The notes: generated from the letters alone by a model not told the origin. 64,000 nt of DNA from Psammoneis japonica (GCA_008632985.1 QPGO01000048.1:434001-498000); one strand, 5' to 3'; positions 1 through 64,000 are shown, counted from the first letter of the stretch. A program made the numbers and translations.

Positions 1-653
1 GTTCTTGGTCAATGTTTTGGTCTTCGCAGCAGTGACGCTCCTCTGTTGGTGCAACGTCACCTTTGGAACCTACAATCGAGGTCCGGACAAAGGGTTTCAG
101 CACACCCAGGTCAAACCAGACGACAACAAGATGCACAAGGTGACTGTGAAAGCGCTTTCTGTTGCCAAGGCACTGCTCAAAGGTGTCAAAGTTTGCGAGA
201 TGCCTGGCAACCCCTTGTGTCCCTTGAAACTGTTCAGAAAGTGTTGGGGATGGTGCCGCCCAGACCAAAAATGTTTCCTGCACCACTGCGCAAGAACAGG
301 TGCAATGACTTGCCACACCAAGTGGCAGAGAAGAAACAAATGGGGAAAACTGCGGTTGGCAATCAAATGAAATGTGCAGCCGAGCTTTGTGGGCTTGAAA
401 ATTGGGAAATGGTGACAAATCATTCAAGCTGAGTGCTCTTGATTGCAGCTTTGGTCTCTGTGAATCTCCACCCAAGAGAGATCGCCAACCGTGTCAGGCA
501 CAAGTCTGCGGAAAGCCAGAATGTCTGCATGCACGAGCATGAGAAGGTTGAGCCATGTGCAGGACGCGATTCGTCCAGCGTCCGTCGCAGCTGCCTCTGC
601 GGTTCAAGAAGTTGATGCTGCAATTCAAGGAGTTGATGCTGTGACAGTGACCT

Positions 654-1253
654 TTGCTGAGGGAGATTCCAGTGGTTCGTCTGCTCCTTCTGAAACAGAG
701 CTGGCGAGTTTGTGCTCTCAGTTTGTGCTCTCGGTGTGATGCCTTGTCGGCTGACAAAAACAATCTTGAGTCCACTGTTCAGGAGCTCAAAGCCACTGTT
801 GGCAATCTTGAGTCCGCCAATGCCATGTTGGTGTCAGAAAAAGACCACTTGGAAAGTGAAAAAGCTGTGCTCCAGGATGGTCTTCAGACAGCCAAACAGA
901 AAATCGAGAAAATGCCTGCAGCTTCCGACTTTGGTTCAATGGATTTTGGTTCAATGGCGGATCATGTTGCTCGTCGTGACAACGCGCTTGAGTTGATGGA
1001 CACCAAGCATTGTGAAGCAAAGAAAGAGAAAATGCAGGTGCTCAACCAGAGCACACAACTCGAGTTGCAGCTTGGAACAATTCAAAGCCATGAGGATGAG
1101 ATCAACTGCCTCAAGGATTCTCTGGCACAGGCAGGTGCCTTGAATCAAAACCTGACCAACAACTTCAGTCAATCTCAGATGCGTGCAGCACAGCTTTCGG
1201 GACGGGTTCATGATTTGCAGGAGCGGAGGAACCGAGTGTGCACAATCATGTAG
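654..1253 (+). pseudogene. Degenerate coiled-coil ORF remnant of unknown origin
   Basis: Heptad-like text (LSADKNNLESTVQELKATVGNLESANAMLVSEKDHLESEK) inside the hypermutated domain; no Tyr; no recognisable domain. Confidence 0.4.
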
Positions 1254-1989
1254 AGTGACTTTCTTTTAGACCAAATGGGGCAGTCTGTTGCAATCACAGT
1301 GAGCCAGCATTGCCAGACTCAATGCACTGCACTCAACACACTGTGCACTTGGCACGATCCTCCAAAAAGTGAGCTGCAGCACATCACTGCGCTCGCACCA
1401 GCCTCATCCAGAACAACCTCATGCACATGTTTGAATGCTCTCGCGTCATGCTTGTTCTGCACAAATTAAAAAGTTTCAATGTTGTCATTCGTTTCGTGAC
1501 ATCATCAGCCGTCATGGTGTGTGTGACACCATCATCTGTCTCGACCAATCAGCGTTCATGGAATCACATGATGATCCCGGCAAAGAACGTCTCAACCAAT
1601 CAACATTCAGGGAATCCAATCCCAGCATCGGAAATCACAGCCGGCGGCTGCACATGATTCTATGACAATTCTGCACTGAGACCCGGTGCGGGTCAGATTC
1701 CAGAAATCTGGAAAATGCCACCTCCGAGCGTCGACCCGGTGTGATTCCGTGGTTTTTTCGGCACAAAGCTCGGCGAAGTCATGCAAACACAGGGATCACA
1801 ACCCACGAATGTGACCGCGCTGCGGAACAAAGAACAGACACTGTCCAATGCAGCACCACCACCTGCCGCACAAAGTCAGGGCACCGCAGGGCGTGGCAAA
1901 CAACACGCAACAACAATGCATGCCGACAACAAAACAACCATCAGCACCACGTTCAAACAGTTGCTTCTTTAGAGACTCTTTACAGAGCT

Positions 1990-4772: not shown

Positions 4773-5165
4773 AATGGGCAAGTGGCTTCGTGTCGCACAG
4801 CACGGCGCTCTTGCGCCAACTTTCAGAGCAAATTTGAGCTTGCTGTCATGCCGCCAATGTTTCACCTGTGCAAGCATTCTGATGACACGTGTTTGCTCGT
4901 GAGACACTGCATTTCCAGAGAGCAATGCACCAGAGTGAACATGAACTGGGAACACAGGTTCATGTCACGCCGCGCCTTTGCGCCGGTTGCAACTTCCTTT
5001 GGAAGATGTTGCACCCTCTTGCCACCAGATTCTTCTGTTGTCTCAACAAAAAACACATCTGCAACCTCTCCCTTTTCTTCAATTGCCATGCTGAAATGCT
5101 GGAATCCTGGTGCATGAAAGCTGCTGGTTGTTGCCAACACATTCGCGGCACCGCTGGTGTTGTCA

Positions 5166-5965
5166 TGGAGCTGCAATTTGGCTGCAAATTGGAGCTTGCT
5201 GTCAAACCACAAATGTCACCCACACAAACATTCTGATGACATGCGTGCACTCGTGAGACATTGCATTTCCAGGAAGTGATGCACCAGTGGACAGAAAATG
5301 GGAATGCAGCTTCATGTCGTGCCGCACCCACACGCCATTTGCAGAGCTGCAACTTGGCTGCAAATTGGAGCTTGCTTTCAAACCACAAACATCACTCATG
5401 CAAACATTCTGACAACATGCGTGCACTTGTGAGATGTTGCATTTCCAGGAAGTGATGCACCAGTGGACAGAAAATGGGAGTGCAGCTTCATGTCGTGCTG
5501 CACCTGCGCGCCATTTACAGAACTGCAACTTGGCTGCAAATTGGAGCTTGCCATCAAACCACAAATGTCACCTGTGCAAACATTCTGATGACACACATGC
5601 ACTTGTGAGACATTGTGTTTCCGGGAAGTGATGCACCAGTGGACAGAAAATGGGAGTGCAGCTTCACATCGTGCCGCACCTGCATGCCATTTACAGAGCT
5701 GCAACTTGGCTGCAAATTGGAGCTTGCTGTCAAACCACAAATGTCACCCACACAAACATTCTGGTGACATGCATGCACTCGCAAGACATTTTATTTCCAG
5801 GAAGTGATGCACTGGTGAACAAAAAATGAGAAAGCAGCTTCATGTCGCACCGGCGGCGCACTGTTGGCTCACTTTTCAGAGCAACATTTTTGCTGCAAAT
5901 TGAAGCTTGCTGTCACAACACAAACATCACCTGCACAAGCATTCTGATGACACATGCATGCTCAG
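5166..5965. repeat. 176-bp tandem repeat, about 4.5 copies, plus a diverged copy at about 4820-4990
   Basis: Anchor gctgcaaatt at 5181, 5357, 5533, 5709 (spacing 176) and 5892 (spacing 183). Confidence 0.95.
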
Positions 5966-6689
5966 AAGACATTGCATGACCAGAAAATGATGAACACGAC
6001 ATGGGAAAGCAGCATCACATCGCATCGCTCTCTTGCACCATCGTCGCATCTCTTTGTGCAGTGCACAGTGAGCACCGCAGAGTGTCGCTCAACTCTCAAC
6101 AAGGTTCTTTGACACCGATGTTGGGCTTTTGTGCTGCAGCGCGCTTTCGCAGTCGGCCGGTCGCCGGACGGCCCATTTGCATTGTCGCGGTTGCCACGCT
6201 TTGCGCTGTTGCTGCGCTTTGCACGTTTTTTTTCCGTGGCCCTGTCACGAATTTGCGGCTTTGTGGTTCTTGACCTGGTGCTGGATCGTGCTTTCCGAGT
6301 CGTGATTCCTGCCTGCCGGCGTTGAGCACACTGAGATTCCTGCACAGGATGTGCACAACGGAAACATTTTCACGCACACTTCTACAGGATTGCCGCACTT
6401 CGAAGTGCAAACCAAATGACTGACCAAGACTGCATGGATTCCGAAATTATGGAGCTCGCAGCTCTTCGGTGGCAGTTTTTTTTGTTTTGTGCAGGCCACC
6501 GTGAAGCCTGCAGAGGAATTGGCAGCAATTTTGGAAGTGCCAAGTTCCAACGAATGCTCTGCATGCAAACTCATGGGATTAATTCTACAAAGGTTCACAA
6601 AAATGACAGTGATTGAGAAATTTAGCAATGGTCACAACACAAACAAAATCTCAGAGAATCCATGTTTTTCGATCACAACTGTCATTTGC

Positions 6690-6975
6690 GGCACGATGTG
6701 TTTGTTGTTCACCAAGCCGGGGTGCAGCAACACCCAAGGATGGCTTGCCCTTCCTCTGGCTCTAATTGCTTTCTCTTGTTTGGTGTTCCACAGCATGTTT
6801 TGCTTGCGTGAAGTGTTGTCTCTCTTTTCAACTCGTCGTCTCGCACGATGTGTTGTTGTTTGCCAAGCCGGAATGCCGCAATCGCCAAAGGATGACTCGC
6901 CCTTCCTCTGGATTGAGACCTTGCATTTGTTTGGTGTTCCACAACATGTTTTGTTTGCACGAAGTGTTGTCTCTA
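6690..6975. repeat. Tandem duplication, about 151-bp unit, 2 copies
   Basis: gcacgatgtg..ccaagccgg at about 6691 and 6843; ttggtgttccaca..gaagtgttgtctct at about 6780 and 6931. Confidence 0.8.
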
Positions 6976-7634
6976 GGCGGCGCAGGTGTTGCCAGTTAAG
7001 TCCGGAGGTCGGGGCAAATCGAATGCGTGTCTCCAGCCTTGAGTCCATGTCACTCTTGTGTCTTTGAGCGCAGGAAGTTGCCTGTTTGCTTGACCCGTCA
7101 GGTCATGGCTGTTGAAACAGACAGCAGCGTTCGTCTGCGAAGCAGCAAAAGCTCGCCGAGCAGATCATGCCGTTGACGGAACACAGGTTTGGGGTTCTGT
7201 TGCATCAGTGACATGATGCGGCAAGTCTTCACTCGCAGGGAGTGTTGATTTAGAACGCGGTCGACTCGCAAGTTCTCTTGTTGTCTCCGCAGTGCGCCCC
7301 CTCTTTTTTCTTTTTTTGGGATGGTTTTCCACCCCAAAAACAGGAAAAAGCTTGAGCTCCATCTTCTGATGGTGCTCTTGAGGCAATGTTGTCCTGCGCG
7401 ACTGATTTCTGTCAACTTTTGATGTTGGCATGTTTCAAATGTTTGAAACACGCTTTGAAGCTGTTCCAACAGATGTGGAAAGCCTAAAAGTGCAAGACAG
7501 CAATCTACATTTGCGTGTGAGGCATTCCGCACGTGCATCAATGGACTGCAATGACGGTCGTAGCACCTGCATGCTTTGATGCTGTTGTTTCTGTTTGTGT
7601 GCCACACCGCTCTCTTTCTTTCAGATGCCGTCTC

Positions 7635-7955
7635 TTCACTGTCTGTCATTCCCTTGGGTCCACACTGGGCCATTCATTGCCGCATGCCCCAAGGCTTGTC
7701 GTTGACACCTGTCATGTGGTGGAATTCTGCCGCTGATCGCTTGCATGTCACAAATGGATTCATTGCACCCCAACCTGCAACGACACAACACACCTTCACT
7801 GTCCGTCATTCCCTTGGGTCCACGCTCGGCCATTCGTTGCCGCATGCCCCAAGGCTTGTCATCGACACCTGTCATGTGGTGGACATTCTGCCGCTGATCG
7901 CTTGCATGTCACACGTGGATTCATCGCACCCCAACCTGCAATGATGCAATGTACA
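7635..7955. repeat. Tandem duplication, about 160-bp unit, 2 copies
   Basis: gtc(t/c)gtcattcccttgggtccac...ccccaacctgcaa starts at 7641 and at 7801. Confidence 0.92.
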
Positions 7956-8079
7956 ATGCACATGCCCAAAGGTGCTTTGAGGTGCTGACTGTTCAATGGA
8001 TTAACCCAAGAGGCCATGGGATCAGGTTGTCACATGCCTGGAACTGAGCAGAGGGCTGCTCTTCCACCCTTTTCCCATC

Positions 8080-9150
8080 CTTGCAATGAGCGTTTGCATC
8101 ATTGCCAGTTGGATGGATTACAATCGTGTTGTCAAAGTCTGCCTTGGTCGCTCCCATCTTGACAGCTGCTGCAACACCTTCCATTGCTTCCATGTGCTGC
8201 TGAATCTGTTGCCAAATGAACCCCAACCACCTTGTCAGTCGCTGTCCAAAAGATGTTTTTGACATGGTGCACGTTTCTGACTCTGTGCACAGGAGTTCAG
8301 AGTGCATCATTGGTCGAAATTTGGTCTTGCAGACTGTTGTGTCTTTGAATTTCTCTGCCGCGTCCTCTTCTGCACCTGACAGTTGCAAATTTGGGATTCG
8401 TCAACACGGCAGATGCAACAACAAGTCGGTGTTGACCTCCGAAAAGTGCATCGGCAAGTCGGTGACCCTCCATCGATGCGACAGGCACAAGAGCAATGCG
8501 GCCCATTGCATCACCAACGGTTTGGACACCACTGACATTTGTTTTGAGTTTTCACAGACAGCAACAAAGCTGCCCTTTGTTTCGACTCCGGATGACATGA
8601 GTGCCGTTCAGCGGGATTCCTGTTGGATTGCAGATCAACATTGGTGTTCGTCTGCATCATTTCATCTCGCAGCAGCTCTCGCATGTGCTGATCTAAACCT
8701 CACAAGAACAAGTCTCCACGACACATGAGGGTCACGTCAGCGCCAATTGAGGCCGTTCATCATCTGTGCCAACTCAAGAGCCCACAGTGACGATTGGCTC
8801 TGGCTGTTCCTTTGGGTGAGACATTTCATTGGAAGAAACAGCGTGTTGGACACTGGGAATGTTGGGCTTGTTGGACCAGCCTCCGACCGCGATGACAACA
8901 TTCTTTGCTTTTGAAGTCTGCGACACTATCCGACCACAGTCAGTCAACACATCAACGACTGCATTGTCGGCCCGTTCAAAATGCCAAAGCCTTCGACAGC
9001 TTCAACGCCGGCGTTCTTTAGGACAGCTTGCAAGGGATGAGATCTCACATGTTGTGCTGATGTGTTCAACCAAGTGGAATCACCATCTCTTGCATGTCCC
9101 GCGAGTGCCATTGCGTGGATGCATTTTCTGGACAAACAGCAGAAAAAGTC
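8080..9150 (-). pseudogene. GSR: Glutathione reductase pseudogene (frameshifted, internally deleted, hypermutated)
   Basis: Ordered motifs across frames: VLKNAGVEAVEGFG; AKNVVIAVGGWSNKPNIP..SSNE; LELAQMMNGL..ADVTL; GRIALVPVASMEGHRLADALFGG; TTVCKTKFRPM; AVKMGATKADFDNTIVIHPT. Confidence 0.88.
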
Positions 9151-10159
9151 AGAGCATCCAACGAAATCACGATGAAATGACCACTCCTCGTCTTTGCTCT
9201 CCCTCCTCAACATTGCTGCTGCTGACATCTTCACAACATCCTTTTTGCCCACACAACTGTCAGGCCGTGACGTCACAACTGCTTTCAAAGCCGAGGTCGA
9301 CACAGCTTTCAGGTGCGCCCAAAGGCGAGAAGCACTTGGCTGCGAACTGCAGCAACATTCCATTTGCAGAAAACAACACTTTCGAATGCAGCGATTCGGG
9401 TGCAACTGAGGACTGCAGGAGGGCATCCTTGGAATGTGATGGCAGCAGAGCTTTTACCCCACACTGTCACGACCATTTCTGTCGTGGCTGGCACACTCTT
9501 TCTCCTTCCTCCTGATGCTGATTTTGCAGGTGTTTTCACCCCGTCACCCCTTCGTCATGACCACTGCATGTTGCTCGTCATCTTTGCATGATGATTTCTT
9601 CGAACAAGACGTTTGCTGTGTGCACAAACAGCCAAATGCACTCTTCCAAACAAAACCCAGTGGGTGACAAACCAAAAGAGCGTCATGGTGCATGCATCCA
9701 TTGGCGCGGCGGCTCATTCATTCGCTGTCTGCCCGTTGTCATGTGCAAAATTTCAAAATCGTGTGGACCTGCACATCACCTGTGCTGTGGTTTCTCCCTC
9801 CACTGCTGCGACTGATTCCAGATTCCAAATCTCCAAATTGGCCATGGCATTGGGCTCTGAAGTGGTTGAAGCAGTGAAGCACCACATGATCTCAAAGGCC
9901 GGTGCAGCGGCGGCACGAGCGCTCTCCAATGCTGCAGCATGAGAGCAGCTGCCTGCTGTTTGCCGCACTGCTTGTCCTTTGCATGCTTTTGCGGAAAGTG
10001 TGGTTGCGCTTGTTTCTCATTTGTTGTCTCAAACGACCAGGCGTTAGATCACATGATGCCAAAGATGCACATCTCCCATCATCAAACATCAATGAACACT
10101 TGACTCTCTGCTTGCACGTCAACCGGTGCACTGCTGGCACGGGCTTTTCTGTGCAACAA

Positions 10160-10500
10160 CCTCCTCTGGTCACAGTTGATTCCAGCACAACACTGCTGGC
10201 CAGAAGGACAGTCAATGTGTCCGTCGTGTTGCAAACGGCACCACAGCTGGTTTCCGCATCCTGCCAGTTCACTCCACACCTTGCAACAGGTGTGGGAGGA
10301 GGTCCACTTGATGAGGAGCACTCTTCAGAACCACAAGTCACCAAATGGGCATGGTTGCAGCACTGATTTGTCTCATCAAACAAGAGACCATCAGAGCAAG
10401 AAATGGGTGATCTGACAACCAAACCGTTCTTGCAGTGATGAAACTTGGTGCAGGCATCAATCAACTTGAGTCTGGTTTCTCCACTTTCACAACACATGGT
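10160..10500 (-). pseudogene. Chitin-binding (CBM14/peritrophin-A-like) domain relic plus Cys-rich module
   Basis: C..DACTKFHHCKNG..ISCSDGLLFDETNQCCNHAHLVTC matches CBM14 spacing (expected KFY.C, CNY), followed by RCGVNWQDAETSCGAVC and, after a frameshift, DCPSGQQCCAGINC. Confidence 0.75.
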
Positions 10501-10864
10501 GCCTGGGGAAGCAGCGGCTGCTGGGGGTGGAGAAGGGATCGCGCCAAACGCGCAGACACTTTCCAGGTCCAGGTGGGACCTCGCACTGCTGAACTGTGAC
10601 ATCGACAGTTTTTTGAATTGCATTGCATGTCGCGCACGCAGAATTCTGCATGATTTTGTTGACATTTTGTGTCATTTTGTGGCACACTCATTGAGCGATC
10701 CATCCAACAACTTTTGACATTTTTTGTTGCAGCGCGATTCTACAATGCTGAAAATCATCCGTTGTGTTGCGAATCTTTTGGCGTGATGAAAAACACAGAT
10801 GGCACAACAACAATGACATTGCAGCACTCACACAAGTCTTGCAAGTGTTGCAAAACATTTGTGA

Positions 10865-13800
10865 TTGCACAAATCTGTGCTTTTGGTGGTGAAAGTTCGA
10901 TCGCAAGTTGGGGACCGCGCAAAAATCGTGCAAATGTTGTTTTTGTGCACGATTTGGTTCACGTGCAGCTGGAACACGTCCATTGCAAAGCCTGGTGGAA
11001 AGCGACCAACATTTGACAGGAGCACACCGACGAAGAATGAAGAAGCGCTGCATGTTGTCATTGAAAGTGGTCAAGCCCATGTGGTGAAGATCGCAGCAGA
11101 ACGTCTGTGGAGAGTCGGTGCAAAGAAAAAGATCCCAGGACTTAATCTTCAATTCATTCCCTGTTGCTCCAACTCTGCCATCAAGTGCGCTCTGGACAGC
11201 GTCAAGAAAAATGTCGACAAACTCAAAAAAAGACAACACTTCTTTTGCACGTCTGTCATGGGACAAATTGACAACACCTTCATCGACAATCCGGGTTGCC
11301 GCGTTGACACTCCAGGAGGCAGTGTGACTCTGCGACAACACCCAATGCAGAAAAGAATCCCTGACCCAACCAATCCTGGCAAATTGATCTCGCTCGTGCA
11401 TCACATCAATGTCAAATGGAACAGGAAGTCGGACCATGTCATTGCCTTTCCAAGGAAATCAGTTGACCTTGTGACACAGATTCTGAACAACATGATTCCA
11501 GAATGTCTGCACGTGTGCGGTCCAGCAGCGGAAGCATGGTTCCAAGCGCCAGGCATCACAGTGTACAAGAATGCAGTCTGTGACCCCCGGAAACTGGACT
11601 GATGACCACTGCGGAGAACGGCGCACTTTCAGGCATTGTCAACGAAGATGCCTGGGGCATCGAAGGTCTGTGGGAAGCGGAGCAAGTGGATGAAGCCTCC
11701 ACGGAGCTCAGAGACTCCTCTGAGAATCAGACATCGGACCTGCCGGAAAACAGTCAACAGGATCAGGCCCCGCCGACGGCAGCCAAACAGGCAGCAGCTA
11801 AACTTGCACAGGCTGATGACGTGTCTTCAGTGGGACATCTTTGGAACAAGGACAATGACACACAATGTGCCAAGGCTCAACTTTCCACAACCTTCAACAA
11901 AGACAATCTTGAAGAATTCAAAGAATGTGTGCCAGACGATGACTTGATCAAAGCTGCCTCTTCAACATGGGCAAAACTCGTGCAACTCCAACAAGAAAAC
12001 AAAGCACTTGTTGAAGAAATGCAATGACTTTGAGCAAATCAGGCTCAAGCACCCGGTCCGGCCCCGGCGGAGAGTGCAGCAGACTCTTCCGTGGATGACC
12101 TTCCCAGCTCCCAGGCCGAGGGAGTGGGACAGAACACCTGGGCCACACCGTCCTCAGCAGAACAGTTGACGCCCGCAAGAGGAGGACATTAATTTGGAAA
12201 GCACAAGTCGACAAGCCGATGGGGCATGGGGTGACTCGGCCACCATTGAGAGTCTCAGTGTCACACGTTTTGCATTTCACAATGTCAGCGGTCTTCCCGT
12301 TACGATCTCTGCTGCAGACAAACACAAAGGAACAATTGACTGGATCAAGGATGACAATGTGGATGCAATGGGGATTTCCGAAGTCAATCTAAACTTTTCA
12401 AGAGCAGCGAAACATGAACAATGGAAAGACAGGTGGTGCAATCTTTGGGGGAACAGCTCCACAGTTGCGACAAACAAACACTGCTCTGCGGAAACGAAGT
12501 GCATGTGTGGCGGCGCAGGTCAGGTTCTGACAAGATCAGCAAATCATCGTCTGGTGGACAAGGGTGTGGACCCGACCGGCCTTGGAAGATGGACCTGGGC
12601 TGGAACAAGAGGGAAGTCAGGAATGCATGCAAGAATCATCAATGTCTGCAGACCGGTCAAGGACCATCAAGCCCATCCGGGCAGGGCATGCTCACAACAA
12701 GAAACCTGCTTGCTGCAAAATGATGATGTCAGATGCCCGAGGCAAGCAATGCTTGACAATCTTGGAGGACAAATTAGAGCCTGGCAGGAAAAAGGAGATC
12801 TCATCATTGTGGGAGGAGACTTCAATGAAAATGTGAGAGGCCTGCGATTTGTCAGCTGGTGCAGGAACCTCCATCTGGTGGACGCCATGCAAGAAGCACA
12901 TCCTGACACTGCACCGGTGGCTGCGTGTGACAAGAGTCAATCCAACATTCCCATTGACGCCACTCTGATCTCTCCGGCGCTTGAAGTGACCAAAGCAGGC
13001 ATGACAGGGTTCGGAGAAACGGACTGTCTGTCAGATCATAGAGTGTTGTGGTGGATCGACATTAACAAGCAAAGCACTCTTGGTTGCATGCCACCAAAAC
13101 TGGCGGACACGAAACCTGGTGCACTGGCCAGAAAGCTGCAAGATCCCAAGGTTGTCAGACGCTGTGTCAAACCAGTGGTGAAAGAGATCCAACGGCTGGG
13201 ACTGCTGCGACGAGCAATTAAACTGGAAAATGCTGCATCCTTTGGACTTGAAGAGCAGAGAAGAATGCAAAGAGATGTTTGCCCTCAACCATCAAATTTG
13301 TCTGGATGCCAAAGAAAAATGCAGGAAAATGCACATGAATGAAGTGGAGTCATCCAACACGATTGACAAGGCGAGAAAAGAGACACATCTGTGGTGTTTG
13401 GCATTTGAGCTTCACCACAATCAAAGAGTTGGCGTTGAGACGATCTGCCAACAGATGAAATGCACCTTGATGCACTGACCTTCCGGCCTCACCAAATGCA
13501 GGAACAACACAAGTTGGCCATGAAGCGCTGCCACAAACTCAAATGACAGGCTTCAAAATTACGACAAGATGAGCTCAAGAAGCGTTGTGCTAAGAGGGCA
13601 GAGGAGAATGGAACAACTCAAGTGCAAGAAGAGAAAATGACACAACATGGCTGCCGACAAAAAAGGATGTTTCGACGGATTGAGAGCATCACTGGCAGAC
13701 CAAAAGCAGCCCTGCAGGCCGTCGTTGCCAAAGGAAAGAATGGGAGAGATAGAGAACACCACACAAAATCAGGGATGGAAAGCGTCTGCAATGAAGAAGG

Positions 13801-16800
13801 GCAAGGCAGACACAGCCAAACATCTGCAGGCCCACACGCTGTCCCCTTCATGATGGAGCCATCAGTCAGTGACTTTGGACATGATGCAAACACGTCAAAG
13901 GCAAATCAAGTGCTCAGTGGCACCTGCAATGTCCCTCCTGATGTTGAGGAACATGCTGCAAAGTTTGTCAAACAGCTGAAGAAACCTGAACCTCCGCTTC
14001 CGGACCTGAAGCTAGAATGCATGACAGAGGAACACATCTCCGGTTGGAAGAAGATGAAACCACACACAACTGGCAGCCTGTTTGGTCCGTCTTTTGCTGA
14101 CTGCAAGGCCGGCAGCACTCATCCAGCAACAGCAGAATTCGACGCATGCATGTCAGCCATCCCGATGAAACAAGGACATGCACCAAAGTGCTGGACCAAG
14201 GTGATTGACGTGATGACACCAAAAAAGACGGCGTCGTCCCACGTCAAGAAACTTCGAACAATTGTCCTCTTCGATGCTGTGCGCAACAAGATGAACAAGT
14301 GCTGCGCCCGTGCCCTCGTGAGTCAAGCGGAGACATGCAAACAAATCCCATGGGAGGCATGCGGCAGCAGGAAACGACACTGAGCAATTCTCTGCACCCT
14401 TGACAAGGTCTTGACAGGAGACATGTTCCGGCAAAGCCACAAACCAGGGGCTGTCAATGGCACAGATGCGAAATCATGCTGCAACCGGATGCTTCACTCT
14501 GTTGCTGCACTGTGCATGCAAAGATTTGGCACTGGGGAAGATGAGGTGTTCATGATGACAGGAACATCAACTCAGATGCAACACTGCATCCGGACAGCAT
14601 GTGGGGACTCTGAAGAACCACATGGAGCATTGGAGATTCCACTTCAAGGCATCTTCCAAGGGCACGGCACGGCTCCTGCTGTCTGGCTGGTTGTGAGCAT
14701 TCCTGTCATCAACATGTTGAAGGAAGAAGGATTCGGCATTGAGGCAATGACACCAATTTCCAAACAAGCACGTCATTGCGTGTGCTGCACCCATGTGGAT
14801 GACACTGACCCACCATGCTGTCCCGCAAGTGAAGACGCCACTTGTGAGGATGTGATCTCAAGCATGCAGAAGATGTCAGACTGTTGGGAAGGTGGAGTCA
14901 GGGCAACGGGAGGCGCTCTTGTTCCTGAGAAGAGTCGCTGGTCCCTGGCTTCATTCAAGTGGATCAATGACACATGGAAGCACCAATCCATTGCCAAAAC
15001 TCCTGGCGAAATCACACTTGTGGATCACGAGGGAAAGCACACAACTGTGGACCATCTGGAAGCATCTGAGGCTGGAGAAAGCCTGGGCCTGTGGATTGCC
15101 CTTGATGGCAACTCCAATGCTCAAATGGAAGCTGTGAAAACCAAGGCAGTGAAATGGGCCGACCAAGTTAGATCAGGACATGTCAACAGGATGGAGGCCT
15201 GGTTTTCTCTTGCAGGAGGGATCATGATGAGTCTGGAACACCCACTGGTGGCAATGTCTTCATCAAAAAAAGAGTGTGTTGAAAGTGAGAAGCCACTGCA
15301 TGAGATTGCTTGTGCGCCCCGACACGATGCAATGGACTGGGACTCTCTGAGCTCTTTGTCAGGCAGGGCATCGCTGGAGTGGCAGTCTTCTTGCAACAGA
15401 TTGATTCACTTTCTGTGACAGGGCGGGAAACAAAGCATGTTTGCGAAACAATGGCACTGGAGCTTGGCCACGGGAGCAAGATGTTCTCCTTGGACTGCAA
15501 CACTCTGGCAACCACAACGACGAAAACATGGACCAAGTCTCTGTGGCAGTTTGTTGCTGTTGCCAAATTGATTTGCACTCACCCAAACCTGCAATCAATC
15601 TCACGCGGGAACAGGACACCTTCTTGATGGAGATGTTTGCGGCGTCAGGCCACAAAGGAGCGCATCTTCGGAAAACAAATCTCTGCAGAATGTGGCTGCA
15701 GGCAATCCGCATTTCTGACATTGCTTCTGGAGACGGCTCTAGAATTCTTCCCAAACATTGGCACGGAACCGAAAGATGCAACACAGAATTCCACTGGCCA
15801 AAGGCGGGAGTGCCTTCTCGACCATGCTGGCGACTTTGGCAGGAAGCTTTGACGACATGCTGTCTGGCACCTGGACGCAATGACAAACTTCGACTGTGGC
15901 GGGCACTTGGCAAATGGACCGAAACTCCCAGTGCCAAATGGCGATGCTCGCAACGGGAGGACAGGGTTTTCCACAAGACAGAGGACCAGATTGAACTGTT
16001 CATCAAACTGCTGAACAAATGAAGCAGCCGCAGGAATTGCTTTGTGTTGAATGGACATGTCAAAGATGAGCCAGACGATGCACTGCCAACTGGAGTTCAG
16101 AGAACATTGACGAAGATGATTCCCACAGGAGCTGAACCTGTCTTGCTGCAGGAGCCGGAGAGCTCCATCAACACAGTTGAGTGGCCATGCACTCCACACG
16201 GCTTCCAACCACCGGTTGAGCCATTGCTGCAAGGAATTAAAGATGGCACAGCCATCTGTGTGACTGACGGGTCCTGCAAGGAAGGCCTGGCAATGGCTGG
16301 CATGATTCTGCCACCTCGGCAGGGGCACACACACAGATGCAGGGGTGCAAACCAAACACCAGGAGAAATGCAGGATCTCACTCCATGTGGAGGAGAACTT
16401 GGAGGCACATTCAGTCTGGTGGCACACATTAGAAAGCTCTGCAAACAGCACAACATCACACAAGGAAAGGTGGTGCTCGGCTGCGACTGCGATGTTGGAC
16501 TTCGTGCATGTTTTTACAATGAATGTGACAATCCCACTCTAACCATCTGTGACCTCATTCACCCCATTCAGTCAATGGTTCAAGAACTGCCGACAGTTGT
16601 GGAAGCAGTGGAGGTCGACGGACACAAAGACAAACTCAAGCCTCTTCATGAGTTGTCCTGTGTGGAACAGCTGAGTGTGGAAATGGACTTGCTCGCGAAG
16701 GCCCATTGGGAGGCACTTTGTTCGCATCCTGGTGCTGAGCCACATCAAGCAGCCCAACCTGTCTGGTCGGTTTGACTTTGGGGCAGGACATTGACCTCAT

Positions 16801-17860
16801 GGAGGAAAAATGACGTGCCAGAACATGTGTGTGGCCCGCCAGCAGCAAGTTGTTGGAACAAGAAATTGTCCCTGGAACCAATGAGAGCAAATGTTGATTG
16901 GGATGCAATGGAGCGAGCTGTGAACAGATGCCCTGTGTTTCGAAAACTGTGGCAGCCTTGGTGGAACACTGGCTTTGTTCCAACGAACAACAACCTCTTT
17001 CGGTGGAAGAAACTCGAAAGTCCGGCATGCCCCAGATGTGGTGAGAATGAAGATGGCATTGATCATGTTCTATGATGCAGGGCATGCATGGCTCAAGAGC
17101 TGTGGACAAAGAAGATGTTGAACCTGGACAAGTGGCTTGAGGACCAGCTGACCCACCCCGATCTACGGAGCAGCATTCTTCATTTGCTTCAGGCGTGGCA
17201 TGAAGGACAGCCCTCCCCTGCAATTTCTTCAGAATGCCCTCACACACAGGAGGCTTTTGATGCACAAGAAGAACTGGGAGGTGGCACCCCAGTGCAAGGT
17301 TTTGTAGCAGAAGAATGGGTGGCTGCACAGCAAGCTTGCCGCGCATTTCTTGAACGACGCTGCACAGGCAAACGCTGGGTTTCGGGTCTGATGCAACAAC
17401 TCTGGAACACGGCATGGGACACATGGCACCATAGGATGCAAGCAGCCGAGACAACAACCTCTGAATCAAAACTCACTGTCAACAGCATTCTGGATGACCG
17501 CATCAAAGAACAACGCGGCAGGTTCTTCAGCGAACCTTCCGCAACTTCCCACTGTGCCCGGTGGTTTGCTGGGACAATGGAAGAGGTCCAGGCAGAGGAT
17601 GCAGACTTCAAACAACACTGGCTGGCTGCTGTGGAGGTGGCCATGAAAGCCACGGGGCACATGCCCCACTGTGAATCTCATGAAGAAGATGAACAGCAAC
17701 CAGCGCCCACAACTGAAAGCGCACATTGTGTGTGTTTTGTGAATGACGTTCTGACCCGCCCCACTCCATGGTTGTGGATTGAAAGGGAATGTCAGGCGTG
17801 ACTAAGCCTTAGGCGGTGTAAATTTTACTGTGAGATTGAATTGAAGTGAAGTGAATGAAG
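10865..17860 (+). mobile_element. Near full-length degenerate non-LTR retrotransposon (LINE): ORF1 plus APE-RT-RNaseH-Zn knuckle ORF2
   Basis: APE: FHNVSG, GISEVN, GGDFNE, PIDATLIS, SDHR (about 12270-13045). RT: KLRTIVL, DAKSCCNRM, QGIFQGHG, HVDDTD (14792-14809). RNase H: VTDGSCK, GELGG, GCDC, VDGHKD, EMDLLAK (about 16250-16700). CPRCGENEDGIDHVL*C at about 17030-17080. Many stops and frameshifts. Short (T/G)TGAA-type repeats at 17835-17862 may be the 3' tail. Confidence 0.93.
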
Positions 17861-54387: not shown

Positions 54388-54807
54388 GACGGCACGGACA
54401 GATATTATGCTAACTACAGCAATGTCATTTGTTCTTTTTGATCATCACAACACGCCACACCCTCAACAAAAAATATGTTATCTATCTCGCTACCTACTCT
54501 ACGGCCGGTACTCCCACAGCTGGCGTCGGTCCTTCCATCAGCCCGGAGGGTGCGGCAACCACGCACACGATATGTTCAGCCGCCGCGTCGTCGCCTTACA
54601 CAAGTCACAGAACAACGCTCATGTCAATCTTGCTCATTGCCTTTTTGACATGTGCACTTTTCAAGCATGGTATCATGGAAGTGGCACTGGGTGGCGCAAG
54701 TCTCCATTGTTGAAACACTGCTGCAGAAGTGTTCTTTGCACCCTTCCCTGTCACCACGAGACAAGAGCAAGGCGGCTGAAGACATCTTTTCAAACAGCAA
54801 CATGTGC

Positions 54808-54833
54808 GGGGGGGGGGGNGGGGGGGGGGGGGG
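54808..54833. repeat. Poly-G tract containing an N
   Basis: About 26-nt G run with n at 54819. Confidence 0.85.
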
Positions 54834-55728
54834 TTGGGAGTTTAGAGGACCCCAGCTTTCTTTGCCTTTGAGCAGAACATCAATGAGTTGGCCATGATTC
54901 TTGTCAGCTTGAGACTTTGTCTGCAAAAACAGCAGAGAAGAGTCATTGGAAAAAGCCACTTGAAGCAGTGTTTGTGTGTGCTTCATGTGCATCATTGGCC
55001 AGGCCATTGTTTCTTCATTGACTCAGCTTCTTTCCTCACATCACATGGATTGGGCTTTTTTCTTGACAGTGCAAAGAAGGTTGCCCATGTGTTGCATTGT
55101 CATGGCAGCTGCTTTTGCCATCTTGAGAAGTTGCTCGAACACAAGCGTGCACTTTGGCAGTGTTCTGTTGGATGCAGTTGGTCACAACCACTTCAATTTC
55201 TTGAGTGCACCTTGCCCATTTGCTCAATTTGCCTGCACTGTTTCTTCAAGTGTGGCGCCCAAAATCTGGCCAGATCCACTGCATCATGTGCACAACAATT
55301 TTTGGAAACCAGACACGAGTGCACTTTTTCAGCTCCTTCTCTTTGGTGTGTGGCATGTTGCTTTTGTCACCTGATGGCAGGATCCTTGCATCTTTTGGTG
55401 CTTCCATTTGTGGAACTGGCTTGTCAAGTGCAGTGCAGCCACCCATCTCAATGTGCTCTTTTTCCATTGCATCCTCTTGGTGTGGTGTTTTCAAACATTG
55501 TCACAGCCTTGCCACACTTTGCCACTTTCGGTTCACTGCCAAGTTGGCTCAGCTCTCACACCTGCTGACAAAATCTTGCTTCTGCCAGCACCAGTTCAAT
55601 CTTGTGCTGGTTTGTGCCTGACATCCCTGTCTTGTGCCTGTGCCCAGATGCAGTGGCAACCTTGCCATGGGTCACTGCATGCCCAACAAACCTGCCTCCT
55701 GAGAATGGCAAAGCTTTCTCAGCCTTTT

Positions 55729-55778
55729 TCTCTGTCTCTCTCTCTCTCTCTGCCTGTCTCTCTCTCTCTCTCTCTCTC
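55729..55778. repeat. Imperfect (CT)n microsatellite
   Basis: tctctgtctctctctctctctctgcctgtctctctctctctc... Confidence 0.85.
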
Positions 55779-58700
55779 CCTCAGCAGCTTCAAGGCTCTG
55801 GCAGCCATCAGCATCATCAGCTGGGCAGCCCTGGGGCATTTGTTGCCCCTCAGTTTCGTTCCCCTCACTTCAATTTTGTGAGAGGGAGGTTGTCAAGGTT
55901 CAGAGGGGGGTGGTCATTTTTGTTTGGACAGCCAGGGTCTTTGGAAAGCACACACATTGCAAACATGGCACACAACATTTTGCACCCACTCCAATGTCTC
56001 ACAACAAGTGCCGCCATCATGAGTTGTTGAACATCTGGCCATCACACAGTTTGCTGCATGGTCTGCTGCCCCTCAGGTGATGCCTTCTCTTCTTCATCTT
56101 TGCCACTCCTGTTTCTCTGCAGGCACACAAGTGCTCATCAAATTTTGCATTCTTGCCAAAGAGCACTCATGCTGTGCTGCCATTTTGCCCCCAACAATCA
56201 TTGCACCCTTCAACCCAAAATGGGCCTTGGTGGCCACTTCAAAAGAAAAATTTGGTGGCACTTGTGCTTGGGTGAGTTTGTTGCATTGCACATCTCCATG
56301 GCACACAGGTTCTCCATTTGCTCAAGTCACAAACAGCGTGCCAGCTCCACCAAAGTGTTCTGTTGTGGTGTGTTGCATGCCATGCACACTCTTTCAATGT
56401 TCATCTTCCAGCCAACCCTGGCCATCAGAGTGTTGTTTGAGCTTTTCTCATTTTTTCTCACATTGTCCATGTGGACCTTCTTGACAACCAGCACAGGCCA
56501 TTTTCACCTGTGTCCCCCACTGTTTTGGCATGGGTTTGACCATGTCACTCTTGCTCCTTAAAAACAAACTGAATGTCAGATTGGTGCATTCATTGACCAT
56601 GCATTGTTCCAGAATGACCTTGAGGCCATTCTTCTCTCCCAATTGTGGGCATGTGACAAGACAGAGGAGCCAAGCACATTTTCCATTGCCATCTTGTGCT
56701 CATTCTGCTGCAGCATGCTCTTTTTTGACTTTCCAGTGGCACATGATTTGCATGGGGGGACACGCTGCCTTGTGGTGCTGGACTTCACTCAAACTGCTCC
56801 TTGGCAGACTCTCAGGTGCTTTCTTTTAACACATGATGATCCAACAAACAGAGCACCTTGGCTTTGCTGTGGTGGGTCTTTTTCATCTCAGAATCACTTT
56901 GCTTGGCACAGCAGCTGAACATGATGACCTTGTGCCTGTTCCTCAGCAGCCCATGCATGACTCTTGTCACCACCCAGCATCAAGCCCTGCGTTTGTTGTG
57001 CTGTGAAGCTGAGCAGGTTGAGCTTGTTCTCAGGCCCAACCCTCACACTCTGCACATGCACAATGTGCATTTTGTTGTAAATTTGGCTCCATTGCCATTT
57101 GCCAGAGCTTCTTGTTGCTGCTGCTTGCTTTTTTTTAACATTCGCTGCTCCCGTGCTGCACAATGATGATGGGTGCCATCCACACTTGCTCCAGCATTTG
57201 CAAGTTTTGCACACATGGGTTTGCAAAAGCAGTTGGCCAATTTGGGAAACCCCAGCTGCATGCTCAACAGCATGAGTTTGTCCATGTTGGCTGGCTCCTG
57301 CCCATTCTGTTTTTGACTTTCTTTTCATGACCTTCTCAGCCAACTTGGTTTTGTGCCAATGAGGGGCCTCACTTGCATTTCTTGGGTTGTGCCAACAACA
57401 CTCCATTTTCCTTGTGACCAACATCCACCCTTGCCTCAATGGCCGCAAGCTTGAGATTGTGGCTTTTGCCTTTTGTGTCATCTTTCTTTGGGCACTCATG
57501 CATTTTGTTGCCAGTGTCACCATGTCAGAAGTGCTTGCTGTGATCCTGCCAGACAGCCCCACTTGTTGATGTTGGTGTGCAGTCTTGGCTGTTGCTCCTT
57601 CAAAAGTGTCATCATTTCTTGAAAGTCTGCCATTCCACACACATTTCCTCTCCCATGCTTTGCTTTTTGTTGCTGTGGCTGACACTCCAGGGTGTTCTTT
57701 TGTGGCATTTTTGATGCTGCCTTGATTGTGTCTTCCTTGTTGACTCATTGTGAATGCCCCTGAGTTTCTTGAGTGGATTTGGCTGTGCTCTTGTCTTGTT
57801 TCACATGCAAGCCATCATTTGCCCATGCAAGAACACACGTGTGTCTTGTGGCACACAACTCCTGAACAAAGCATCTGCTGAACTGGCATCAAGTGATGTT
57901 TGAACAGTGCCTTTAATGATGCCACCCACCACTGACCACTGGAACAAAAAGTGCTTCTTTGTGACTGGGGTGGCTGCCAAGAAATCTCCTGTGCAGCTCT
58001 TTGATTTTGTGCCTGCTTTTCAACACCAGCTGCTCTTGTTCTCAGCTCACCCTGCAGTGCCAACACTGACCTTCTCAGATGGTGTTTTGTGCTGGGTGTG
58101 TGACAAGCTAATGTTGGCCATTTCTGCAGTGCAAGAACCACATCACAGGATGACAAGCAATGTTGTCTGGCAGAAAACTGCAAGCATTGATGCCTTGTGA
58201 GCTGCAAGCTTGCTGCCCTTTGTCATGATTTTCTGCTGATTCAGCAAACGTTCCATGCAGGCTCCAGCAGCACAAATCCTGTGTGCTTCAGAAATGACCT
58301 CCAATGATTGCTTCATCAAATCTCTAAACTTCTGTCCATGCCCATCAGTGATTGTCAATGATCTTGTTTTCTTCTGTTGGCTTGTCAAGTTCTTCACTCC
58401 AAGTTGTGAAAGTGCCATTTCTGTGGTTGTGGCACTCATGACTGTCAGCTTCAGTCAACGTTTGGCATCACTTGGCTGCCATTGTCCATTTCTGTGCAAG
58501 ATCCAGTGCTGTCTCTATGTGCAACACATCAACGCATTTCACTTCATGACTCCCAGTCCTGAACAAACTCTCTCTTAATTGCTGGCACATCAAGCTTGCT
58601 GCTCTGTGTGGCAAACTTTCTGCTGTTGCCACAGCACCCAAAAGTGTGAAGTTGAGTCTCTCCTTGCCAAAAGCAAGCTGGTGCTGTGGAAGCCACACTT

Positions 58701-59984
58701 CTGTCTTAGAACTCATGCTGCTCTTAAACCAAGTTCTGAGTGTGACTTTTCTTTGCCATTTGGGCATGGCTGCCATGGTTTCAGTCCCAAAGAAAGCAAC
58801 AACTCCTGCTTTGTGCCATTTTGTTGTTGCCATCAGGTGCTGCCACAAGGTGGCATCAACCTTGGCCAGCCCTTGCATCCTTCTGCTGCACACTCCTGTG
58901 TGCTGGAAGTGCAGGTCAACCATGTCAGCCTTGCTGGCAAATGGCACAATGACAGCACTCAAAGCTGGATTTGAGGTTGTCAAGTTTGTGCCTCCAGCTT
59001 GGCCAGATTGTGGCCTTCTCAAATGGTCTGACAAACAGCTCCACCTTGGTGTGCATGGCTGCTTGGTTGCTCTCTTCGTAGAAGGCTTGTGTGCAGGTGG
59101 GGATTGAAGTCTTGCACTCACAAGAATGGTTGCTTTTTTGTTTTGGCACCTTTGCAGATGCTGACAACTTGCACCTTGATGACAGGCCATGGACCTTTCA
59201 GATGGGGTGGTCTTTGCTTGGAATGCCTTGCCAGCTTTACACTGCTCATTTGTGTTGCCAAGGCATCTTTGTTCATGCTCTTGAAGATCTCAACTTAAAT
59301 TGGCTGATTGGCAGCACACTGGCCCAGTGGTGCCTTGTCACACTGGTTGGAATTTGTTGCCACGGCACAGTGTGGCACCAACTTGGTCTGTCCTTGGTGT
59401 TTGATGCAGGTGGGGCTGAGAGCACTTGGTGGTGCAGCCATGTGCTTTTCTCAGCAGCCCATGGGTGCAGGCCAGCCAGTTGAATCTTGATGATCTTGTT
59501 CTCAAAACTGTGAGCACTCATCCACATGGGACTCATGTCTGGCCACTTCCAACATTTGTTGGTGTACTCTGCAACTCTCTCCTGCAAGCTTGCTTCGCGT
59601 CGTTTGGAGCCACTTTGTTCAATCATGCACACATCATTGCCGTCGTCGACTTTTCGCATGCGTCGAGCCACCAGGGCGCTCACCAAGCTTGTGTGGCTGT
59701 GCCCTCTCTCTACGGTATACTTAAGAGCAGGAGAGAGTCAATCCAGCTGCGACAGATTCTGGTGTCTATCCTGCTGCAGAGAGAAGAAGGAGCGAGCATA
59801 TGGTGTTCAATACAGTATAGCGACACACAATCGACCTTCACTGAGCTTTCTATGGACCTTAGAGCTCTACTTGTTCAGTGTTTCCCGCTGCCATTGTTTT
59901 AAAATTGAAGGAGGCTTTGCCGTCACACATTTGACATGTAGCCAAGTGCATAAGGTCTATTCAGCACCGCGTGTTGCGCAAGTC

Positions 59985-62203: not shown

Positions 62204-62769
62204 GTCTCCGACAGGTCATTGCTATTGCAGTAGAAGCGAGACGTTTCTTCGTCACTCTTTATTTCCTTCATTGTCTTTCAGCATACCTTGAGCAAAAGAT
62301 AGACAAGGAACATGGTGGAATTCGAAGTTCGGGGTGCAGAAAGAACTGGGAAAACACCGCCTACAGATTATGCGTGATTTAGTCATCGGTGTTTTGACAC
62401 GACCTTCATGCGAAAAGTCCTAGGGCCCTACTTTAGCTTTAACCCAAGCTCCAAATAGCCGTAACCAGCCTTACACTAGTTCATCACCGTTTGCTGGCAA
62501 GTAAAGAAGAAGAGACAGAAGTTGCTCTGGCGCTCACTTGGAAGGAAGCACCCAGAGCCTCATGCCTTTTTGGTTTTGTCGACGGCACAGGGGAAAAAGT
62601 AAGGATGCGGAACACGATAACTTTTGAATTTCTCATTCCGAGTTTTTGCGGCCTTACCTGAAGCAGCCGCTAATCACATCGCAAAGACCAGATGCAGTCC
62701 CCAGGAAGGACACGTCTGGAACCATCCCATTTAGGCGCATTGTATGAAATATCAGGTTGATCTGTCGTA

Positions 62770-63187
62770 GAATTGACAGATGGCTTTTTGCGAGGGCGGC
62801 TTTGTTGATTGCACTTGTGCTTCCATTTGAGCACACATGCCTTGAACAGGGAAGGTGTCGGGAACACAGTCACCACAGCAAAAGCACCCTCCTCCAAAAT
62901 GCCTGCTTTGCTGAAGAAAAGATGAGGAAACAATGTTGAGAGCACAAGAAATGACACTTTCGGCCCCATTGCTCAAGAAAAGCATGCCCAATGCAGCCAT
63001 TGACAACATTGCACCATCCACCAGAGTTGGGGTGCACATTAAAAAAACCACTCGCAACTCTGAAGGCAAGGGCACTGGTGGAAATTTTTTCACAAGTGCC
63101 GTGGACTTCAGCCTTGGCTCCACCAGGAAACAACTCTGACAAGCAACACAGTGGCAATTGTCTTGTCAACATCCTGTCAAGCATGAC

Positions 63188-63220
<33 letters not shown>

Positions 63221-64000
63221 TCAAAGCATTGCTCAAGCACAGGAAGGAGTTGGCTTGGGGTCAATTGCTTGTCACTCCAGCACAGCACATTGTTGCATCT
63301 GTCCACACATTGCCAGAGACGAGCTGTCTGCTTTTCCACTGGCATCTTGCCAAAAATCTTCTGGCTTGGCCATCTTCTTTTTGGGGCAGCTCAAAAGTGA
63401 CAAAGCTCAGTGCCATCCAAGCCAACATTTCCTGAGCTGCCAGTGACAGAAAGCTGCTGGGGTGCCCCTTTGACAGCCAGCACAGGGGATGCACAGTGTT
63501 TTTTTTTTCCTGGCTTTTCCATTTTCTCAGCTTGCAATGGGGAAAGCAGCTCACAATCTAGATGGTCACTTGCCTTTCCTCATGCTGCTCCACTTGTTTG
63601 GGAAGTCTTGCCCCAAGTTTGTGCAGTGTTGTCAGATGTGTGCTCGCAGGGTCAGCTGTGGCATGTGCTGTGTCACAGCAGCAGTGGAGCAGCATTGCTG
63701 ATGATGAGACTGTTGTCCAGGCTCATGGGAGCTTTGCTGTGCATTTTCACAGGGGCGCGCCAATCAACCATGGCAAAGTGTTGTGCTTTCTTCAGGGTTT
63801 TTGTTGTCAAGTGATGCAATGCCAGTGAAGCTCCATCTAGAGCCATGAGCCATTTGGCAAACATTGACCAAGTCATGATCTTGTTGACTTGCATGTCTCA
63901 TGCAGTGCACCTCATCACATGCCTCAAATTTTAGTTGGATTTTTAATTGCAGTTGCTGCACTCAAAGTCTGTGCCACCAGGAAAATGAATGAAGGGCACC
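62770..64000. other. Hypermutated domain 3 (TpA/CpG-depleted, runs off the window), with (GA)n at about 63192-63216
   Basis: Same TG/CA-saturated, TA- and CG-poor composition as domain 2. Confidence 0.85.

Follow-up and report, generated by a model that had tools for sequence, protein, structure and literature searches.

Blocks of DNA that lack nearly every TpA dinucleotide (TA), and with them a variable share of CpG dinucleotides (CG), raise the question of whether a single kind of decay has removed both, or whether two kinds are overlaid and one of them reaches further than the other. Three such blocks, domains 1, 2 and 3 (D1, D2 and D3), are found in a 64,000-nucleotide stretch of the Psammoneis japonica genome (GCA_008632985.1 QPGO01000048.1:434001-498000), which we refer to as the window and in which positions are counted from the first letter. 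An initial annotation, made from the sequence alone, had proposed that TA loss is faster than CG loss or spreads wider, and that the ratio of CG to TA could date each domain. The account that we consider probable is that two different mutational processes with different rates have acted on the same silent, repeat-derived blocks, and that the apparent further reach of TA loss is mainly a difference in rate.

The observed-to-expected ratio (obs/exp) of TA falls to 0.06 in D1, 0.05 in D2 and 0.07 in D3, compared with 0.59 in the gene-rich background, whose genes keep TA at this level. The corresponding ratios for CG are 0.58, 0.07 and 0.10, compared with 1.03 in the background, in agreement with the initial annotation, which had described D1 as poor in TA with many CG left and the cores of D2 and D3 as lacking both dinucleotides. 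The D2 core, for example, carries 16 TA where 178 are expected and 19 CG where 284 are expected. At the same time CA and TG are in excess (obs/exp 1.6-2.1 inside the blocks). Taking the background ratios as the starting state, we compared the number of missing TA and CG with the excess of TG and CA, and the balance closes in D1 (1089 missing, 1192 in excess), in the D2 core (426 and 464) and in D3 (107 and 101); the left margin of D2 gives 16 and 19. The excesses of TG and CA are nearly equal to each other (+638 and +554 in D1, +229 and +234 in the D2 core), indicating that both strands are affected. GC content is 0.48-0.50 in the domains and 0.48 in the background. A search of the gene-rich background for cryptic TA-free patches found no 300-bp window with one TA or fewer (0/786), which shows that the TA-free state is specific to the blocks. 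All three CG-depleted regions lie inside TA-erased domains, and a region that is depleted in CG and normal in TA occurs nowhere in the window. Scans for tRNA genes and Rfam families as boundary markers found 0 and 0.

Both losses are mutational, as shown by a nearly full-length relic in D1 that resembles a long interspersed nuclear element (LINE; Table 1). Its endonuclease domain matches Pfam Exo_endo_phos (E 4e-6), and its relatives, seen in the tblastn coverage of the window, are proteins of about 1880 aa in which the reverse-transcriptase family PF00078 is present. We aligned six relatives with the reading frames of the window and considered a column conserved when at least five of the six agree. 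None of the 26 conserved Tyr columns keeps Tyr in the window, and 17 of them are now Cys or His (12 Cys as TGY and 5 His as CAY), the rest being 2 Arg (CGC), 2 Phe and 5 others; control columns are largely intact, with Trp kept at 38/42 and Gly at 57/67. Arg is kept at 36 of the 68 conserved Arg columns (17 CGN and 19 AGR), and 10 columns now hold products of CpG decay (TGA 3, CAR 4, CAY 3), so that 10/27 inferred CGN codons have become TGA, CAR or CAY. All nine in-frame stops of the relic are TGA, and four of them stand at columns with Arg in at least five of the six relatives, among them 14381 (Arg in 6/6), 13406 and 16020 (5/6 each). The initial annotation had regarded the TGA stops at 2919, 14381 and 17073 as consistent with a change from CGA; all three are TGA on the plus strand, and Arg is found at 17073 in 3/6 relatives, while for 2919 there are no relatives to compare. 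The TA-free state of D1 ends one base past the final TGA of the LINE frame (17799-17801), after which four TA follow in 24 bp (17799-17830); the 3' untranslated tail of the element would then be unmutated or missing.

A tandem array in D1 shows the same changes between its own copies. The four core copies of the 176-bp unit differ by transitions and transversions in a ratio of 23-24:1, and 19 sites vary solely within the set {TA, CG, TG, CA}: 11 hold only CA or TG, 6 keep CG in some copies and 2 keep TA in some copies with CA or TG in others. Since the tandem copies differ from one another, these changes must have arisen in the chromosome, after integration or duplication. The interior of D1 also has a patch in which TA is erased and CpG is intact. 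The segment 6026-6325 holds 28 CG, where 300 bp of D1 hold 10.9 on average (Poisson P 1e-5 per window); its CpG density is above that of the background, and 6000-6399 holds a single TA. This patch was flagged only by a scan statistic (6000-6400), as binary segmentation of CG in D1 found no step over threshold. It lies about 6 kb from the start of the window and about 11 kb from the D1 edge, which shows that CpG retention is patchy and is not confined to block margins. D1 as a whole is a 17.8-kb mosaic (LINE relic, tandem array, CpG-rich patch and a fragment with a chitin-binding domain) that is uniformly TA-erased. TA erasure is therefore uniform, and CpG loss varies both between blocks and within them.

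These patterns give the two losses different rates. The fraction of TA that remains relative to the background is 0.10 in D1, 0.09 in the D2 core and 0.11 in the D3 core, and the fraction of CG that remains is 0.56, 0.07 and 0.10, respectively; D1 has lost about 90% of its TA and only about 44% of its CG, whereas in D2 and D3 about 90% of each is gone. The apparent ratio of the TA rate to the CG rate obtained from D1 is at least about 3.9. That TpA conversion is the faster of two separable losses, as initially proposed, fits this ratio, the TA-free and CpG-intact patch of about 300 bp in D1, and the lack of any CG-depleted, TA-normal region. The proposed clock, on the other hand, does not hold: as TA has reached the same floor in all three blocks (0.09-0.11 remaining) it carries no age information, the CG/TA ratio reduces to CG alone, and the patchy retention of CG within a domain makes CG unreliable as a clock. 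It is plausible that D1 is the younger domain, because its LINE relic is recognisable and D2 and D3 match nothing, but lower methylation of D1 would look the same.

To compare the extent of the two losses, the four block edges in the window were located as maximum-likelihood step change points with 2-lnL support intervals. At the right edge of D2 the TA step (59711, support 59663-59716) lies 115 bp outside the CG step (59596, support 59559-59596) and the supports do not overlap. They overlap at the left edges of D2 (TA step 54672, CG step 54617) and D3 (TA step 62769, CG step 62798). The right edge of D1 has its TA step at 17803, no usable CG step and no offset, with CG staying at the half-depleted level of D1 up to the edge (obs/exp 0.50 over the last 370 bp).

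The margins of D2 and D3 had been described by the initial annotation as keeping many CpGs while lacking TA. They are poorer in TA than expected by chance: the fraction of equal-length background windows with as few TA is 0.006 for 54601-54810, 0.008 for 59570-59709 and 0.029 for 62771-62870. Abundant CpG is fully true only of the right margin of D2, which has 0 TA and 10 CG in the 140 bp of 59570-59709 (CG obs/exp 0.95) and the same counts in 59596-59710 (CG obs/exp 1.08), and which contains the CpG-rich strings quoted in that annotation (59594-59666). The left margin of D2 has 1 TA and 5 CG in 54601-54810 (CG obs/exp 0.40; 54598-54807 holds 4 CG), and the left margin of D3 has 0 TA and 3 CG in 62771-62870 (CG obs/exp 0.53). 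CA (obs/exp about 2.0-2.15) and TG (about 1.3-1.7) are raised inside the margins. When the margin width was set in advance at 100, 150 or 200 bp, D2 right was the only edge with a significant CpG enrichment just inside the TA boundary (p 5e-5 to 3e-7); the left edges of D2 and D3 combined give p 0.09, 0.29 and 0.08. For the three D2/D3 edges pooled, the densities immediately outside the boundary are 80 CG and 67 TA per kb; inside it, successive distance bins hold 40, 40, 20, 20, 6.7, 3.3 and 6.7 CG per kb and 0, 6.7, 6.7, 0, 6.7, 3.3 and 2 TA per kb. At these pooled edges the drop in TA is step-like, and CG declines gradually across about 200 bp, with more than half of the marginal CpGs contributed by D2 right alone.

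A wider spread of TA loss is not required to explain these edges. In a model that gives both processes one targeting profile and lets only their rates differ, the three D2/D3 edges should together retain 3.3 TA over their first 200 bp, and 2 are observed (P 0.36). As this model is not rejected, a faster TA process suffices, and the proposed wider spread is borne out as a significant offset at one edge of the four.

The few TA that survive in the blocks are not a random sample of contexts. TTAA is over-represented 5.4-fold and CTAA/TTAG 2.8-fold among survivors, ATAT has 0 survivors and ATAC/GTAT are at 0.17, with the bias in the same direction in D1 (p 3e-10) and in D2 and D3 together (p 3e-8). 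Ordered by the base before TA, erasure is most efficient after A, followed by G, C and T, so that ATA is erased best and TTA worst. This bias implies a flanking-base preference of the mutator and fits an enzyme-like specificity.

Table 1. Positions of the blocks, their margins and the features within them
Feature	Position	Strand	Description
D1	1..17802		TA-erased, about half of CpG left; runs off window start
Tandem array, 176-bp units	4578..6064	+	Copies diverged almost only by transitions at TA/CG-derived sites
CpG-intact, TA-free patch	6000..6400		D1 interior; CG scan statistic
LINE-like relic, nearly full-length	12128..17801	+	AP-type endonuclease and reverse transcriptase; 9 in-frame TGA, at least 1 frameshift
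D2	~54598..59710		TA-erased block; core and two margins
D2 left margin	54598..54807		TA-erased, intermediate CpG
Poly-G run, at least 26 bases	54808..54834	+	Window's only N; between left margin and CpG-free D2 core
D2 core	54835..59595		TA and CG both erased; origin not recognised
Four CA (window) / TG (run X1 contig) swaps	56499..57184		Contig comparison, D2 core
D2 right margin	59596..59710		TA-free, CpG fully kept; one clear offset
D3	62769..window end		TA-erased; continues past 64000
D3 left margin	62769..62870		TA-free, 3 CpG; offset not significant
D3 core	62871..64000		TA and CG erased; TA obs/exp 0.07, CG obs/exp 0.10

In the account that we favor, one process would change A:T to G:C on either strand, turning TpA into TpG or CpA fast enough to have brought all three blocks to a common floor, and it would come to a step-like end at each block edge, within about 10-75 bp. 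Its chemistry would most likely be an enzymatic deamination of adenine in DNA, by analogy with the proposal made for Bigelowiella natans (B. natans), discussed below. The other process would convert CpG to TpG or CpA, a G:C to A:T change, at a rate at least about 4 times slower, unevenly between and within blocks, and ramping down over the last 200 bp or so of D2 and D3. Its cause would most likely be deamination of 5-methylcytosine, because transposons of diatoms are CG-methylated. The fast process, being saturated, would mark the full extent of the targeted block, and the slow one would show a taper of its own intensity or a local protection of CpG.

Comparison with assembled contigs from a sequencing run (X1) suggests that conversion may have continued recently. 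Four adjacent double changes fall within 700 bp of the D2 core, each with CA in the window and TG in the X1 DNA contig, and a uniform-rate model expects 0.01-0.05 of them. Further differences are CG/TG at 58249 and 59208 and TG/TA at 55170. The CA/TG swaps suggest that the same ancestral dinucleotide, TA or CG, was recently converted in two lineages, which may be alleles, strains or subclones; at the flanking single-nucleotide polymorphisms 61315 and 62115 both alleles are in the sample, and X1 disagrees with a second run, X2. The X1 DNA contigs confirm the D2 sequence at a depth equal to that of the flanking genes. Run X2 looks like cDNA, with two intron-like skips of 79 and 80 bp (GT..AG and CT..AC) and cover on genic parts only; among the X2 contigs listed none lies on D2, D3 or the margins, and this absence of cover proves nothing. 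A joint 54838>60859 has a side of only 24 letters and was taken as spurious. Relative to the X1 contig, the window lacks six single bases (57231, 57400, 57546, 57562, 57710 and 59133, within 56241-59641), and there are no such gaps in 4.8 kb of flanking gene sequence on the left; they are possibly residual long-read assembly errors in a repeat-like block.

Several points weigh against our account. There are only four edges, and the offset is significant at one of them; at the left edges of D2 and D3 the intermediate CG level is given by very few events (5 and 3 CpGs). After adjustment for composition, only 2.8 TA are expected in the GC-rich right margin of 115 bp, so that its TA-free state is weak evidence on its own (Poisson P(0) about 0.06) and the CpG side contributes as much to the offset at D2 right as the TA side does. 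As both processes yield the same products, it takes an unmutated copy to tell what any given TG or CA site was originally. D2 and D3 also resist identification: 27 open reading frames (ORFs; 5 from D2 and 22 from D2/D3) gave six Pfam hits with E of at most 0.1, all below the curated cut-offs, and neither a word-based search with a 306-aa ORF nor an exhaustive phmmer search with a 273-aa ORF gave any hit. That these two blocks are repeat-derived is suggested by look-alike contigs at 90-95% identity that match in part, which occur elsewhere in run X1 for parts of the D2 core; 11 of 30 contigs are look-alikes of this kind and 21/30 fit only partly. A sensitive blastn comparison of the three domains with one another found only (CT)n/(GA)n matches, and blastn with purine/pyrimidine coding for D2/D3 reached at most 85 bits, under the 133 bits of a shuffled control. 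The simple-repeat matches between D2 and D3 are (CT)n at 55721-55789 and (GA)n at 63178-63226, in opposite orientation. We consider the decoupling of the two processes to be sound, and a rule about edges to be weakly supported.

The edges admit other explanations. It is doubtful, in our estimate, that the margins are separate sequence units, such as parts of an insertion mosaic or the CpG-island-like 5' end of a transposon, that differ from the cores in age or methylation. The poly-G run at 54808-54834 stands exactly where CG reaches the level of the core, and two DNA contigs of run X1 terminate within this run of G, which leaves its true length uncertain; the right margin, too, contains a break of X1 contigs (59642), and a minus-strand, ATG-led open frame begins in that margin and runs into the core, as would be expected of the CpG-rich 5' end of an element, and D1 is itself a mosaic. 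However, there are no terminal repeats and no target-site duplication around D2 (best local alignment score 20, 95th percentile of shuffles 22), and the margins have no homology to any other part of the window, including with purine/pyrimidine coding. Separate units would in any case leave the conclusion of two processes with different rates unchanged. An explanation that we rate as unlikely, and slightly less credible than this, is that the TpA mutator reaches 100-200 bp, or about one nucleosome, past the methylated zone, guided by a chromatin mark that spreads wider. The 115-bp offset at D2 right, with its non-overlapping supports, is what such a reach would produce, as is the higher CpG density, relative to the core, that each of the three D2/D3 edges has over the 100-200 bp next to the TA step on its inner side; the left margin of D2 shares an 11.7-kb DNA contig of run X1 with the single-copy gene beside it, which fits mutation of host flanking sequence. 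The rate-only model nevertheless fits, the left edges of D2 and D3 are not significant (combined p 0.08-0.29), D1 right has no offset, and the CpG-intact, TA-free patch deep in D1 shows that CpG retention is not specific to margins; simple spreading of chromatin, moreover, predicts a gradient, and the TA boundary is a step.

Two further possibilities appear to us highly improbable. One is that the margins are chance, that is, short GC-rich stretches lacking TA that happen to adjoin the true edge. The low TA expectation in the right margin allows for this, 22 stretches of 115 bp or longer without any TA occur in the 36.5 kb of background, and the margin coordinates were picked after the data had been seen, but the empirical p values of the three margins, the 0/786 background windows and the enrichment of TG and CA in the margins speak against it. 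The other is that one bifunctional deaminase or repair pathway converts both TA and CG to TG/CA, with TA as the better substrate. The two losses do co-localise, with every CG-depleted region inside a TA-erased domain, their products are identical, and ADAT2-type enzymes are reported to deaminate both A and C in DNA, as cited in a preprint on B. natans (Mettrop et al., bioRxiv 10.64898/2026.01.13.699255). Against a single activity, the hypermutable regions described in that preprint change almost only by A>G and T>C at TpA. The context also follows a different logic for each change, with the constant neighbouring base on the 5' side when A is the target and on the 3' side when C is. In addition, CpG survival here ranges from full (right margin and 6000-6400) to about 7% at constant TA erasure, which one dose of one enzyme would not easily explain. 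Two processes that differ in rate remain the reading that we prefer.

The TpA-erasing process itself is already known from the B. natans preprint (10.64898/2026.01.13.699255), according to which A>G or T>C changes make up 210/211 of the mutations accumulated in a nucleocytoplasmic large DNA virus (NCLDV) region and 20/20 of those in a virophage region, the GC-biased mutations all falling on TpA, and in which a DNA adenine deaminase is proposed. As those mutations are almost only at TpA, a TpA process can run without CpG changes. The features of our blocks are similar to what the preprint describes: TpA is converted to TpG or CpA on both strands, and the long-term signature is a clustered depletion of TA with enrichment of CA and TG. 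A>G or T>C change at TpA is found here in the 17/26 Tyr codons that are now TGY or CAY, in the array sites and in the mass balance. In B. natans the process is reported to be confined to foreign or mobile DNA, and here D1 contains a LINE relic and a tandem array, while D2 and D3 have no family match; reverse-transcriptase and endonuclease-reverse transcriptase domains are reported as enriched among TA-depleted coding sequences, and the D1 relic likewise combines an AP-type endonuclease with a reverse transcriptase. There are also differences. The blocks in P. japonica are saturated (obs/exp 0.05-0.07), compared with a Rho of 0.45 given for the B. natans NCLDV region, and what has been targeted here, in a different organism, is a LINE relic, a tandem array and relics that cannot be recognised rather than integrated viral DNA. 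The mutations in B. natans were seen directly in mutation-accumulation lines, whereas here a raised rate would be indicated only indirectly, by the four CA/TG swaps and the TG/TA difference between the window and an X1 DNA contig. CpG decay is overlaid on TA erasure in the window and is not treated in the available part of the preprint; nor did we find in it a mention of the flanking-base preference seen here, although its supplementary tables might hold such data. What is new here is the decoupling of the two processes, both in their rates and in how far each extends at fine scale, together with the flanking-base bias of the surviving TA.

Deamination of 5-methylcytosine in methylated transposons leads in general to the decay of CpG. 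The slower loss resembles such decay in that CG changes to TG or CA in silent repeat DNA, with Arg CGN codons becoming TGA, CAR and CAY, and in the CG/TG differences between alleles and between tandem copies. Unlike ordinary CpG decay, it is nested here in a faster dinucleotide process with the same products, which confounds the standard dating. In repeat-induced point mutation (RIP), known in Neurospora and other ascomycetes, TpA is made from CpA or TpG by C>T change and GC content is lowered. The blocks are like RIP in that dinucleotide-specific transitions riddle repeats and kill transposons within fairly sharp limits. The direction is opposite, as TpA is destroyed here by A>G and T>C; RIP is ruled out by this, TpA being depleted about 10-fold and the GC content of the domains not lying below that of the background. 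Among diatoms, transposable elements (TEs) are the main targets of CG methylation, which is removed by loss of DNMT5a in Phaeodactylum tricornutum, according to the part of the source available (PMC9998398). Editing by ADAR or APOBEC is a deaminase-type hypermutation of retroelements, and ADAR, according to the B. natans preprint (10.64898/2026.01.13.699255), prefers a 5' U next to the A that it edits, which matches the TA motif. In contrast to such editing, both strands are about equally affected here and a tandem array that is not a retroelement is mutated too. Editing of RNA or cDNA intermediates is ruled out by the equality of the strands, by tandem copies that diverged in place and by the uniform erasure of the 17.8-kb mosaic. 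Our literature search did not find TpA erasure described in diatoms, the B. natans preprint being the only description of such a process that it found, and among the papers listed on methylation of diatom TEs there was none on their CpG depletion.

A more specific form of the two-process account is possible, and we propose it only tentatively: the TpA eraser may be an active, context-dependent DNA-editing defence that is independent of cytosine methylation and has been active since the two sampled lineages split. Independence from methylation would follow from the observation that CpG-intact patches and margins are erased as fully as CpG-free cores, and the CA/TG swaps could mean that one and the same TpA was converted separately in each of two lineages, or that both strands were converted and then segregated. 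If this editing reading is true, the TA step and the CpG ramp could record the reach and the duration of methylation over a silenced block. If the CpG-retaining, TA-free stretches are unmethylated, then targeting of the TpA mutator is independent of cytosine methylation, which restricts where the factor that guides it should be sought. Candidate adenine deaminases can be tested against two concrete signatures, the flanking-base preference and the allele swaps, and the step-like TA boundary is a sharp anchor for genome-wide edge profiles. In this genome, dating by CpG decay and the inference of methylation from TG/CA are both confounded by a second process with the same products.

D1 carries further remains beside the relic and the array. 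An open frame on the minus strand (9892-10671) matches the chitin-binding Peritrophin-A domain PF01607 (E 1.2e-6) and represents a host-like gene fragment inside the erased block. On the plus strand, 2358-4772 holds three open frames that follow one another in a single reading frame and have no Pfam match; they are split only by TGA at 2919 and 4110 and are probably another dead element.

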